Positions 3,708 through 24,322 of a stretch of DNA of 64,000 bases are shown here, piece by piece (positions within the stretch are counted from its first letter, which is position 1; every line of letters starts with the position of its first letter). Below the pieces are notes generated by a model. That model saw only the letters and a program-made list of their open reading frames with translations, was not told where the DNA came from and ran no database searches. The DNA comes from Candidatus Doudnabacteria bacterium (lineage in GTDB: Bacteria > Patescibacteriota > Doudnabacteria > UBA920), in assembly GCA_023245995.1 (NCBI GenBank), contig JAHFJH010000003.1:1585-65584 (forward strand), given 5' to 3'. Both the position numbers and the translations under genes were made by a program.

Positions 3708-4301
3708 ATGAAGATAATCATTTTCGAAGGCATTTGCACAAGCGGAAAATCATCGGTTATACAAAAATTAAAAAGAATTCTCAGCGAACGCAAACTACCA
3801 TGCAATATTGTTACAGAGGATGAAGTTAAAAAAGCGATGTTTGCCAACACGGACATGACAAAGAGTATTCTCCGTATGGAAAAGTTCCTTGCTAAAAACG
3901 TACATAGCAAAAAGAACGTTTTGTTTGATCGTTTATATTTATCTTTGGTAGACAGATGCGAACAACCGGACTCATTGTTTAAAAACCTAGAGGAACGCAT
4001 TATTAAACACAATGCATCAATAGTATTTTTGTATATTCCACCCCGAAGTATAAAAATTCGTTTATCTGGTGCGTCGCTCCATCGCGGAACAAAATGGAAG
4101 AATTATCTAGATGGTTTAGGTGGTATAGAAATGGCTACCACATATTACTCAAACCAACAAAAGAAAATACTGCGATACTTAAAACAATGCTCAGTTCCTC
4201 ATATCATTTACAACACAGAGAGTAGAGACTACGAGCACATATCTGAAAAAATATACAAAACTCTTATTAAACCACCAAAAGACCGTCTCCCTACGCGGTA
4301 A
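3708..4301 (+). CDS. P-loop nucleoside/nucleotide kinase-like protein
   Basis: Walker A motif IFEGICTSGKSS at the extreme N-terminus and a size of 197 aa fit the dNK/thymidylate-kinase/zeta-toxin-like kinase fold class. The 4-nt gap to the upstream GT2 gene suggests an operon. Confidence 0.5.
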   Translation: MKIIIFEGICTSGKSSVIQKLKRILSERKLPCNIVTEDEVKKAMFANTDMTKSILRMEKFLAKNVHSKKNVLFDRLYLSLVDRCEQPDSLFKNLEERIIKHNASIVFLYIPPRSIKIRLSGASLHRGTKWKNYLDGLGGIEMATTYYSNQQKKILRYLKQCSVPHIIYNTESRDYEHISEKIYKTLIKPPKDRLPTR

Positions 4302-6605: not shown

Positions 6606-7166
6606 TTATTTTCTCTTATTACCGAACCGTGCAAAGTGCGCAAAGGCTTTGTTAGACTCTGCCATACGGTGAGTGTCTTCGCGCTTTTTGTACGCGTTAC
6701 CAAGTTTGTTGTATGCATCTATCATTTCTGCGGCTAGCTTTTCACCCATTGGAGCGCCCTTGCGAGCTCGGGCAGCATTTATAAGCCACTTCATACCAAG
6801 TGTAGTTTTGCGTGGTTCTTGTACTTCCATTGGTACCTGATAGTTGGACCCGCCAATGCGACGACCCTTAACTTCAACCATTGGGCTAACATTTTTTAAA
6901 GCAATTTCAAAAACTTGTTTACCATCTAAAGACTTATCCGCAGTCTCTTTAGAGTCCGTAGAACCGGCACCAGTGGAAGGATTGCTTGCACTTAGCGCGG
7001 CCATTTTCTCGGTTACAGTATCTATGGCAGTGTAGAATATCTTTTGAGCAACAGTTTTCTTGCCCCGTTCCATGAGGTAGTTAATAAACTTTGCGTACTT
7101 TACACTGTTAAATTTTGGATCAGCCGTAGGAATACGGCGTTCGTAACTTCTTGCTCTTCTTGGCAT
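6606..7166 (-). CDS. rpsG: 30S ribosomal protein S7
   Basis: MPRRARSYERRIPTADPKFNSVKYAKFINYLMERGKKTVAQKIFY...; 186 aa with an internal Ser/Thr/Gly-rich insertion. Confidence 0.95.
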   Translation of the reverse strand: MPRRARSYERRIPTADPKFNSVKYAKFINYLMERGKKTVAQKIFYTAIDTVTEKMAALSASNPSTGAGSTDSKETADKSLDGKQVFEIALKNVSPMVEVKGRRIGGSNYQVPMEVQEPRKTTLGMKWLINAARARKGAPMGEKLAAEMIDAYNKLGNAYKKREDTHRMAESNKAFAHFARFGNKRK

Positions 7167-7666: not shown

Positions 7667-7760
7667 TCTTAATTAGTGGCTAGTGATTAGTGGCTAGTGA
7701 TTAGTAATTAAATTCATGAAAAGTGCAGTATTGGCCAGACTAATCACTGTCCACTGTCCA
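7667..7760. repeat. short tandem direct repeats upstream of rpsL
   Basis: ttagtggctagtga occurs twice in tandem at 7673-7700. It is followed by three cactgtc units (cactgtccactgtccactgttcactc). Both blocks begin with taatcact. Confidence 0.4.
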
Positions 7761-7781
7761 CTGTTCACTCAAAATAAAAAC

Positions 7782-7812
7782 CCAAGCAAAGGGTTTTTTG
7801 CTTTTCTTCACT
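7782..7812. terminator. A-run/hairpin/T-run element (possible bidirectional terminator)
   Basis: aaaaaccc-aagcaaa-gggttttttg; the stem is extended by A/T pairing on both strands. Confidence 0.3.
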
Positions 7813-7817
7813 ACCAG

Positions 7818-7853
7818 TACCCGCCTCTTCGGCGGGTCGCCGATGAGGCGACT
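7818..7853. ncRNA. conserved double-hairpin motif, copy 1 (unknown function)
   Basis: tacCCGCCtcttcGGCGGG followed by GTCGCCgatgaGGCGAC. The same two-hairpin unit recurs at 23863-23897 with compensatory stem changes, and partially at 24301-24322. Confidence 0.3.
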
Positions 7854-8122
7854 CCCTTGAAACCTGTAAGGGTTAAACTTCCTAGTAAATGAGACCAAAT
7901 AATAGTAATTCCTTAAAGTTTCGACTCTAAGGGGCTTCCTATTCACTTGTTAAAGAAATTATACCTAAATAAGCCCAAAACCGTCAATATTGACTTTATA
8001 GTCAATATATGCTACAATATCGCATATTTGCTTGCTTATATAGAACATAGAACTTCGATCCTCAATTAAGGGGAACGAATACCTGTAAACGCCCATAAAA
8101 AGTAAGCCAGTAAGGAGGAAAC

Positions 8123-23781: not shown

Positions 23782-23862
23782 TGGTCAGGATACTGGGAAT
23801 TGAACCCAGTCTACACCCACCCCACGTGTCCGCCATAGCTTTAGCGAAGGCGGATGGGCGCG
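23782..23862 (-). other. tRNA-like 3' half (T-arm, acceptor 3' strand, ACCA) with no foldable 5' half
   Basis: Minus strand reads ...GACUGGGUUCAAUUCCCAGUAUCCUGACCA, a perfect T-stem/loop plus 7-nt acceptor strand plus discriminator and CCA. The expected CAGGAUA 5' strand is absent upstream. The conserved double-hairpin motif lies where the 5' half should be. Confidence 0.3.
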
Positions 23863-23897
23863 TACCCGCCTCCTCGGCGGGCTGCCGATGAGGCAGC
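23863..23897. ncRNA. conserved double-hairpin motif, copy 2
   Basis: tacCCGCCtcctcGGCGGG followed by GCTGCCgatgaGGCAGC. Relative to copy 1 the second stem changes TC/GA to CT/AG, which is compensatory. Confidence 0.3.
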
Positions 23898-23922
23898 TAC
23901 CACTACTTTAATAAATAAGCTC

Positions 23923-23996
23923 TGGTCGGGGTACCAGGAATCGAACCGGGACTACAAGACCCCCAGCCTTGCGTACTACCACTATACTATACCCCG
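23923..23996 (-). tRNA. tRNA-Pro (anticodon GGG)
   Basis: Hand fold: CGGGGTA/TACCCCG acceptor stem, D-loop AGTGGTAG, anticodon stem CAAGG/TCTTG with loop CTGGGGG (GGG, G37), T-loop TTCGATT, ACCA encoded. There is one C·U mismatch in the T-stem. Confidence 0.75.
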
Positions 23997-24004
23997 TCCC
24001 AAGC

Positions 24005-24279
24005 TCACCTACTAGTTCTATTTTTAAAATAACTTTCTAGTTTCTGCCTTAGCACTTCTCTCCCATATCCTGTTTTGAAAAACTTCTCTGCTTTTAAAGC
24101 ATCACGCTTTTCTATATACGCTTCATAAAATACCAGTTTAAACGGTCCATTCTTGGCTGTATATTTACCACCACGTTACCATTATGTTCTTTAAACCTTC
24201 TCCTTAGATCATCAGTACTGCCATAATATAGTTTATGATTACCAATAGATTCCAAAATGTAGGCATACCACATATACAT
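24005..24279 (-). pseudogene. frameshifted GIY-YIG (YhbQ/UPF0213-like) small nuclease gene
   Basis: Frame A gives MYMWYAYILESIGNHKLYYGSTDDLRRRFKEHNGN, then a stop. The +2 frame continues with GGKYTAKNGPFKLVFYEAYIEKRDALKAEKFFKTGYGREVLRQKLESYFKNRTSR*. The two frames together make a complete GIY-YIG domain broken by about a 1-nt indel near 24175 (AAA/AA run). Confidence 0.6.
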
Positions 24280-24300
24280 TCAACACTGCACCGTCTTTTT

Positions 24301-24322
24301 GGTGAACCGCCGATGAGGTGAC
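24301..24322. ncRNA. partial third copy of the conserved hairpin motif
   Basis: gaaCCGCCgatgaGGTGac shares the CGCCGATGAGG core with copies 1 and 2. Confidence 0.2.

Follow-up and report, generated by a model that had tools for sequence, protein, structure and literature searches.

The 64-kb window analyzed here (the whole stretch of 64,000 nt from contig JAHFJH010000003.1 of a Candidatus Doudnabacteria bacterium) contains three copies of a 33-nt GC-rich palindromic double-hairpin repeat, which we name E. One copy lies in the leader upstream of rpsL, and two lie around a short cassette next to parB that consists of a gene for a GIY-YIG nuclease domain and a tRNA-Pro gene. Because the neighboring genes of the window run on the minus strand, E is described on that strand. 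The three copies, all in non-coding DNA as a previous examination of the same letters (the sequence-only reading) had stated, are the following.

7820..7852, minus strand: E copy 1, solo, upstream of rpsL in the leader; exact pattern match, 64.3 bits with the covariance model.
23865..23897, minus strand: E copy 2, at the downstream border of the GIY-YIG/tRNA-Pro cassette; exact pattern match, 58.7 bits.
24289..24322, minus strand: E copy 3, degenerate, at the upstream border of the cassette, 25 nt past the ParB stop codon and 9 nt ahead of the GIY-YIG start codon.

The 30-nt core CCCGCCTCNTCGGCGGGNNGCCGATGAGGC is present at 7820-7849 and 23865-23894 (plus strand) with no mismatches, and dinucleotide shuffles gave an expectation of 0.00 core matches in the window. 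The whole element has the form X-hairpin 1-X'-hairpin 2-X, hairpin 1 having a 5-bp stem and a UCNUC loop, and hairpin 2 a 5-bp stem and a GRNGA loop. Copy 1, in the gene-sense direction (minus strand), reads G-TCGCC-TCATC-GGCGA-C-CCGCC-GAAGA-GGCGG-G. X' pairs with both X bases, and this triple covaries in 76 of 87 copies (G/C/G in 55, A/T/A in 17, C/G/C in three, and T/A/T in one). The opposite strand has the same architecture and receives 37-38 bits from the covariance model. The GC content of E is 70-75%, versus 41% for the window. Copy 3, CACC-GTCTTTTT-GGTG, AA, CCGCC-GATGA-GGTGA, C, is complete though decayed: its first stem, CACC/GGTG, carries a compensated G-C to A-T change, and the covariance model detects only its second hairpin (E-value 0.38). 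Thus the sequence-only reading was right that the motif is real and that the second stem changes from TC to CT between copies 1 and 2 with a matching GA to AG on the partner strand; it had also noticed the third copy, at 24301-24322, but took for partial what is an entire degenerate element. L001 and L002, which were assembled independently from other samples, have the identical E (such numbers denote the compared loci).

Covariation was examined in 33 distinct variants of E, collected by hand from many genomes. Under the double-hairpin model 99.4% of the cells are paired, seven of the 11 pairs have changed on both sides, and 34 cells are compensated, a result that none of 500 shuffles equaled; judged from these variants, the double hairpin is under selection. 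The minimum-free-energy structure given by RNAfold is a single long hairpin (13-15 bp) in three of the four strands tested, and the two folds differ by just 1-3 kcal/mol with either RNA or DNA parameters, because hairpin 2 is approximately the reverse complement of hairpin 1. Despite the preference of RNAfold, the single long hairpin was rejected: it has no compensatory pairs and does no better than shuffles. Stem cells are 98% Watson-Crick, and the rare wobbles (nine versus four between the strands) are uninformative for strand assignment. Since the stems are mostly Watson-Crick and the wobbles show no strand preference, RNA is not singled out over DNA hairpins, and so the earlier proposal of selection on RNA structure holds for the structure, with no specific support for RNA. 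A hammerhead core (CUGAUGA) or a kink-turn was also rejected, as the consensus CCGAUGAGG lies within a 5-nt loop and the required core is therefore absent (read by eye). Among the 4227 covariance models of Rfam, only tRNAs pass the gathering score, and nothing credible is found around the copies up to an E-value of 10.

When one genome per GTDB species was scanned with a pattern, at least 119 stretches matched. Among the matches listed, at least about 85 are in low-GC metagenome-assembled genomes (MAGs) of Patescibacteria, also called the candidate phyla radiation (CPR), and comprise Paceibacterota, Nomura-, Sacchari-, Gottesman-, Morani-, Doudna-, and Zambryskibacteria and Microgenomates, with at least five loci in one MAG; a few low-GC MAGs are nominally assigned to other taxa. 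E is a phylum-wide repeat of Patescibacteria and is not private to the organism of the window, whose closest named relatives, judged by ParB similarity, are Candidatus Doudnabacteria. A covariance model search over 570 kb of E loci added only about six diverged copies, which makes the copies strikingly uniform. About 30 of the matches listed come from high-GC genomes (GC above 0.6) and look like chance, since the second stem is absent from them. They are what can be said in favor of chance similarity or an assembly artefact as the source of E in general, an explanation of practically negligible probability in view of the zero expectation in the window, the identity of E in L001 and L002, and the dozens of MAGs in which its stems covary. 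Further copies and covariation, the lack of which the sequence-only reading had named as grounds for giving its proposal up, are thus both present; its idea of a discrete small structured RNA in a local three-copy motif has to be replaced by that of a widespread repeat with varying presence at orthologous sites. E was absent from IMG/VR viral contigs and a phage collection, and a plasmid collection gave only chance-level matches. In the literature, searched for the E sequence, for palindromic repeats of CPR, and for GIY-YIG proteins in CPR, no description was found.

The insertion sites of E have a common pattern. An A directly precedes E (position -1) in 73 of 87 copies (84%), T is found at -2 in 49% and G at -3 in 55%, and 27 to 32 of the 87 copies are in the context ...GGTA↓E↓G(A/G/T)(A/G)C, which corresponds to position 21/22 of the tRNA D-loop (arrows mark the junctions). 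The preferred site GGTA↓G is the DNA for tRNA D-loop positions 18-22. Comparison of filled with empty sites, including the neighboring intact tRNA genes, yields a net gain of exactly 32 nt with no target bases duplicated. The rpsL leaders of L207 and L210 have the empty site GGAGA↓GTACTAG, at which the window contains a clean 32-nt insertion, and in L213 and L214 tRNA-Pro(GGG) simply follows ParB, with neither E nor a GIY-YIG gene; E is present in TrmD of nine of 120 close orthologues. Copy 2 interrupts a tRNA-Pro remnant at position 21/22 of the D-loop (AGTGGTA↓E↓GTACG), the terminal G of E doubling as G22 of the remnant, and the same type of junction recurs in L099, L122, L126, L142, and L149. 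As read from these filled and empty alleles, E is an inherited DNA insertion, varying in presence between relatives, with the target A↓G (best GGTA↓G), no target duplication, and an orientation bias. We consider it highly probable that E is a mobile repeat.

The tRNA pieces that flank E are either 5' fragments (nt 1 to about 30-36) or 3' remnants (22-76), and are located 10-90 nt from an intact tRNA gene of the same type. The possibility that E is a D-loop intron of a functional tRNA was rejected: when E alone was excised, with 24 boundary variants each, a tRNA was restored across the D-loop junction in none of 91 copies. Upstream of the GIY-YIG genes of L144, L137, and L128, E or a single E-like hairpin is nested within the loop of another E, and L137 also has tandem arrays of E and a tRNA 22-76 segment; from these we conclude that insertion and unequal recombination occurred repeatedly at these loci. 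Long inverted repeats (16 to about 40 nt) surround some of the intact tRNA genes that neighbor E-bearing fragments, as in L100 (about 6660-6830) and L212; these repeats would form a helix resembling a processing stem.

In other genomes E is not confined to intergenic DNA. By a crude scan for open reading frames (ORFs), 29 of 88 copies are inside open frames, and in long ORFs E always has the orientation that is free of stops in all three frames (18 of 18). The resulting peptides follow the patterns [VI]ASSA[TI]RR[RK]GG, KSPHRR[PS]AxEA[GE], and [SN]RLIGDPPxRR, examples being IASSAIRRRGG, KSPHRRSAGEAE, and NRLIGDPPxRR. A single Pfam domain hit spans the insert in all eight proteins analyzed (two TrmD, DHODH, GT4, RNase R, Dus, TatD, and MurD). 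Among the three options offered by the sequence-only reading (a small structured RNA, a protein-binding site, and a REP-like intergenic repeat, after the repetitive extragenic palindromes of Proteobacteria), the last is the nearest, except for the word intergenic. In TrmD of four or five genomes (71-90% protein identity) the DNA of E is identical except for loop 2. Inside E, 58 of 60 codon pairs for the same amino acid are identical, versus 541 of 1015 elsewhere in TrmD; with L010 added, the figures are 95 of 100 and 794 of 1591. The rough Fisher p of 2e-13, or 8e-22 with L010, refers to pairs that are not phylogenetically independent. The loop of TrmD that follows LRPE(L/F)FLKAF contains other short inserts in the orthologues P0001-P0120 (ASKDGARHDFA, PKSGSRQ, and SGPRISGSPTPARPFR), which may be encoded by other GC-rich elements.

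Such synonymous conservation could be expected if E were mainly a signal used by the host, either as RNA or as a DNA-binding site for a conserved protein of Patescibacteria, with its spread being secondary; the signal might act in transcript processing, stabilization, or translation control. The conservation of the loops while the stems covary is consistent with this, and so are the agreement of orientation with genes, seen both in the ORFs and in the flanking genes (21 versus 7), and the placements in 5' leaders (rpsL, ahead of 16S rRNA in L040, and 3-45 nt before GIY-YIG starts). However, nothing obvious unites the positions or the host genes (TrmD, MurD, Dus, RNase R, DHODH, GT4, TatD), and presence varies among close orthologues, no need for a copy being evident. 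The near absence of wobbles and their lack of strand preference, the equal architecture of both strands, and the lack of an Rfam family also speak against a host signal, which we regard as a rather improbable main role of E.

The hairpins are GC-rich, copy 3 is located shortly after the ParB stop codon, and one subfamily (ATCGCC...GGCGAT) has T-runs alongside on one strand, all of which could point to an intrinsic terminator or a 3' mRNA-stabilizing hairpin. But on the gene-sense strand E is followed by A-runs or by A-rich or unrelated sequence, not by the U-tract of an intrinsic terminator; the T-runs lie opposite coding sequence that is rich in A or in Lys codons, as in TrmD. Moreover, many copies are inside ORFs, and a separate canonical terminator is found 20 nt past copy 1. 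In the window, neither strand has a U-tract after E, in agreement with the earlier statement that the window copies are not simple terminators, and the terminator explanation is very improbable.

When the ORFs located up to 2 kb from 87 E copies were clustered all against all, only one protein family recurred, a stand-alone GIY-YIG domain of 83-88 aa, whereas no transposase-like family, RAYT/Y1 HUH protein, TnpA, or TnpB recurred within this distance. For 11 of 91 E copies, the GIY-YIG gene begins 4-43 nt downstream in the same orientation. In a reverse test, metagenome loci were picked by GIY-YIG homology alone, with no reference to E, and the 38 closest homologues were counted. E is located just upstream in 29 of the 38 loci (3-45 nt, with one exception at 114 nt), a tRNA gene is found within about 70 nt of the stop codon in 35 (28 Gln, four Gly, and one each of Tyr, Pro, and Ser), and a second E follows the tRNA in about 14. 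Around more distant GIY-YIG genes (L160-L201), E is mostly absent. The link of E with one GIY-YIG subfamily and a tRNA gene is tight and holds in both directions. Pieces of the form (A)ATGGTA precede the second E in L122, L126, L137, L142, and L149. In L122, the acceptor stem common to the outer tRNA halves (GCGGGA/UCCCGC) differs from that of the enclosed tRNA-Gln. When the segment from the first to the second E (about 430 nt) is deleted from L122 or L142, a 72-73-nt tRNA-Gln(ctg) is restored, with the junction after nt 20-21. Thus the unit E-GIY-YIG-tRNA-E, about 430-490 bp in length, splits a resident tRNA gene of the same isoacceptor at the D-loop (position 21/22) and supplies a replacement.

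The GIY-YIG family matches Pfam PF01541 (E-value 3e-21) as a bare catalytic domain, and the E-linked proteins show no variation at the residues equivalent to the catalytic Y, Y, R, H, and E. The nearest solved structures are UPF0213 proteins, followed by the SLX1 structure-specific endonucleases. With the group I intron endonuclease model TIGR01453 the score is 28 bits versus a cut-off of 56.

The cassette of the window conforms to this arrangement. On the minus strand the order is the ParB stop codon, copy 3, a frameshifted GIY-YIG gene, tRNA-Pro(GGG), AGTGGTA, copy 2, GTAC-G, and the remainder of an older tRNA-Pro(GGG) that ends with ACCA at 23782. Besides the two E copies, its parts are as follows.

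24005..24279, minus strand: GIY-YIG gene, 86 aa, UPF0213/SLX1-like, identified by three-frame translation and by tblastn to E-linked GIY-YIG proteins.
23923..23996, minus strand: tRNA-Pro(GGG), intact, the cassette-borne replacement, found by ARAGORN and Rfam; begins 8 nt past the GIY-YIG stop codon.
23898..23904, minus strand: D-loop piece AGTGGTA, immediately 5' of copy 2.
23782..23864, minus strand: 3' remnant of the older tRNA-Pro(GGG), positions 23-76 plus the encoded CCA, read from the sequence with no ARAGORN call.

Copy 3 keeps to the spacing of 3-45 nt that separates E from the GIY-YIG start in the independent loci, and copies 3 and 2 are, in our opinion, quite probably the borders of the cassette. 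The GIY-YIG gene has a single frameshift near codon 35, and to judge by its reading frame it is probably a pseudogene; because the same frameshift is present in the two assemblies from other samples (L001 and L002), the cassette is probably inactive. It is a decaying cassette, and copy 1 is a solo insertion. The sequence-only reading had placed copy 2 between two tRNA loci, which is correct on the side of the intact tRNA-Pro(GGG), the other side being occupied by the 3' remnant. An odd tRNA, a tRNA-Sec, or a permuted tmRNA at copy 2 was considered and dropped, as ARAGORN made no such call and the region was resolved as the remnant.

The remnant retains the T arm and the acceptor strand UAUCCUG followed by A73, and contains an additional hairpin of 30 nt (23826-23855) at position 31/32; without this insert and with a complementary 5' part grafted on, it folds as tRNA-Pro(ggg). 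Its homologue in L212 is an outer tRNA-Pro(GGG) inside which, at about 3830-4090, an intact tRNA-Pro(GGG) is nested. The outer gene is interrupted three times: by a 16-bp inverted repeat that encloses the inner tRNA (after nt 26), by a 30-nt hairpin (31/32), and by a 21-nt hairpin (variable region). Without all three insertions, ARAGORN calls the outer gene as tRNA-Pro(ggg). The T arm and the acceptor strand are almost identical in the window and L212, and the 30-nt hairpin has the same position, while ParB is only 75% identical; for this reason the remnant may be under constraint rather than decaying. For a 276-aa gene downstream of copy 2, no homologues were found outside its own species.

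Taking these data together, we favor, at about even chances, the interpretation of E as a palindromic DNA-mobile element similar to REPs and to the Rickettsia palindromic elements (RPEs), probably mobilized by its SLX1-like GIY-YIG partner. The assignment of the GIY-YIG protein as the mobilizing enzyme of E is by itself tentative. The protein would recognize E as a hairpin or cruciform, or would nick the A↓G target, and its cleavage would move or copy E in trans; solo copies would then be non-autonomous derivatives, by analogy with REPs and their RAYT (REP-associated tyrosine transposase). Extended further, this becomes a previously unrecognized mobile system, in which a structure-specific mini-nuclease with no DNA-binding domain recognizes the double hairpin and moves or copies E, and in which a spare tRNA gene carried along lets the unit invade essential tRNA genes at the universally conserved D-loop sequence; such a system is possible, though on balance we doubt it. 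In that case, the frozen copies might reflect ongoing nuclease-driven homogenization, or a host that depends on intact hairpins in an addiction-like manner.

Several points weigh against mobilization of E by the GIY-YIG protein. No GIY-YIG gene lies within 4 kb of about 70 of the 91 E copies, the protein has no DNA-binding domain, and the scan pattern fixes one loop and one stem, so that the sample of copies is biased. E stays intact beside GIY-YIG genes that have diverged to 56% identity, which is unexpected for a purely selfish decaying insert, and the frozen synonymous sites in TrmD are likewise a property of resident copies that simple selfishness leaves unexplained. In TrmD, the net size relative to the empty allele is +4 aa, not +11 aa. 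The other orthologues (of the 120) have SKIKIKDK at the position of E, and as E is replaced by this different segment of 8 aa in the empty allele, no exact target can be read there. Finally, the link between E and the GIY-YIG gene could be indirect, if cassettes create dispensable D-loop targets that E then colonizes.

In that alternative, E is moved at A↓G by another factor, which may be a RAYT or an IS200/IS605-type HUH transposase encoded elsewhere or a host replication or repair activity acting on snap-back hairpins, and the GIY-YIG/tRNA cassettes home separately, supplying non-essential copies of the D-loop target, the only tRNA-like places where E insertions could survive. The predominance of solo copies agrees with it, as does the location of E within duplicated tRNA pieces, 5-15 nt from their ends, and not at the duplication boundary. 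Unrelated GC hairpins occupy the same sites (in the L211 leader, as the 30-nt and 21-nt hairpins of tRNA-Pro remnants, and in the TrmD loop), and the lack of target duplication together with the orientation bias resembles single-strand HUH transposition. On the other hand, no transposase-like family recurs near E, a near-saturating colonization would be required to put E at the same place in 29 of 38 cassettes, and the association is specific to one GIY-YIG subfamily, the more distant L160-L201 genes mostly having no E. We consider an independent mover of E unlikely, while giving it appreciable weight.

E resembles REP/RAYT systems, RPEs, and mitochondrial GC clusters and double-hairpin elements, yet fails the defining features of each. 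Like the REP/REPIN-RAYT systems of Proteobacteria, it is a short (about 35 nt for REP) GC-rich imperfect palindrome in many copies with compensatory stems, some copies flank a nuclease gene, and most are solo and non-autonomous. In REPs a conserved 5' GTAG adjoins the palindrome; the junction of E in D-loop contexts is GTA↓G, the G past the arrow belonging to E. RAYT is an IS200/IS605-like transposase, whereas the partner of E is a GIY-YIG mini-nuclease that travels with a tRNA gene, and no HUH/Y1 RAYT was found near E. In addition, E is not extragenic, being in frame in ORFs, and nearly the same sequence is found across a phylum-level radiation, in contrast to one REP family per species. RPEs are palindromic selfish repeats of small AT-rich host-dependent genomes, present in frame in conserved protein genes as well as in RNA genes and intergenic DNA. 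E is similarly tolerated in frame in conserved protein genes, but RPEs are 100-150 bp in length, form Rickettsia-specific families, and diverge with their host genes, whereas E has 33 nt, occurs in Patescibacteria MAGs, and has frozen synonymous sites. We know of no enzyme associated with RPEs.

The GC clusters of yeast mitochondria (GC42) and the Allomyces elements are likewise GC-rich (double) hairpins of 30-80 nt in AT-rich genomes, with changes concentrated in loops, as in the variable loop 2 of E. In Allomyces, an insertion of a free-standing endonuclease ORF with partial gene duplication adjoins the double-hairpin elements. Mobility of the yeast GC42 and Allomyces double-hairpin elements was inferred from presence/absence polymorphism (PMC4478555; Paquin et al. 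2000, cited therein), and GC42 has an AG target-site duplication (PMC4478555), in contrast to the clean 32-nt insertion of E. These elements are organellar and have no sequence relationship to E.

The Seg GIY-YIG genes of phage T4 (SegB in the T4 tRNA cluster) are located next to or within tRNA genes, the interrupted gene being partly duplicated or replaced, and vary in presence. The E-linked genes are similarly lodged by or within tRNA genes and variably present, but Seg and I-TevI proteins have 200-250 aa and a DNA-binding domain, as opposed to a catalytic domain of 83-88 aa that scores below the TIGR01453 cut-off. To our knowledge, Seg cassettes have no palindromic border repeat. As with integrative elements that target tRNA genes, a tRNA gene is disrupted and the incoming DNA restores its function; unlike them, the E cassette of about 430-490 bp carries a whole replacement tRNA, breaks at the D-loop (21/22) and not at the 3' end, and has no integrase. 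With IS200/IS605-derived elements in mind, E shows no duplication, A at -1, and, on contig fragments, an orientation bias relative to genes, but no TnpA (Y1) or TnpB was found in its vicinity. In contrast to a functional tRNA intron, only excision of the whole segment from E to E restores the tRNA, never that of E alone.

Patescibacteria have genomes of roughly 1 Mb that are thought to be stripped of dispensable DNA. Here, a selfish-looking 33-nt element is near-identical across very divergent lineages, resides inside essential genes, and is linked to the UPF0213 nuclease family, for which we know of no established function. If the link is causal, it would give a function to stand-alone GIY-YIG proteins and a type of mobilization distinct from HUH, DDE, and serine or tyrosine recombinases. 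E explains some oddities of CPR MAGs: fragmentary tRNAs, tRNA genes that are split or nested, and otherwise puzzling 11-aa inserts in conserved proteins. It can serve as a compact sequence marker for CPR contigs, and it is a candidate substrate for nuclease assays with the GIY-YIG protein.

The context of copy 1 is the following feature.

7771..7987, minus strand: conserved rpsL leader; near-consensus promoter TTGACG (7987-7982), 18-nt spacer, TATAAT (7963-7958); RNA of about 150 nt; intrinsic terminator 7799-7771.

This unit aligns with L207 (1690-1885), L210 (1720-1915), and L211 (1670-1885) from Doudnabacteria-like relatives and has no Rfam match; based on this alignment, it is a candidate for a new ribosomal-protein leader or small RNA. 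At L211 (about 1810-1830), a different 19-nt GC hairpin (CCCCGCTGAGCGGGGCTAG) is located exactly at the leader site that holds E in the window, which suggests that this site is an insertion hot spot common to several hairpin families. In L040 (2139-2200), about 12 nt separate a copy of E from the 5' end of the 16S rRNA gene downstream of it (AGAGTTTGATCCTAGCTCAGG). Between the leader terminator and the rpsL start, the window (7672-7760, minus strand) contains three repeats of CAGTGGA and two of CACTAGCCACTAAT; lineage-specific short tandem repeats precede rpsL elsewhere as well, namely two repeats of AGCTAATCAGCTAAGA in L207 and repeats of the ATAGGAC type in L210 and L206, and they are also found at the equivalent positions of L211.

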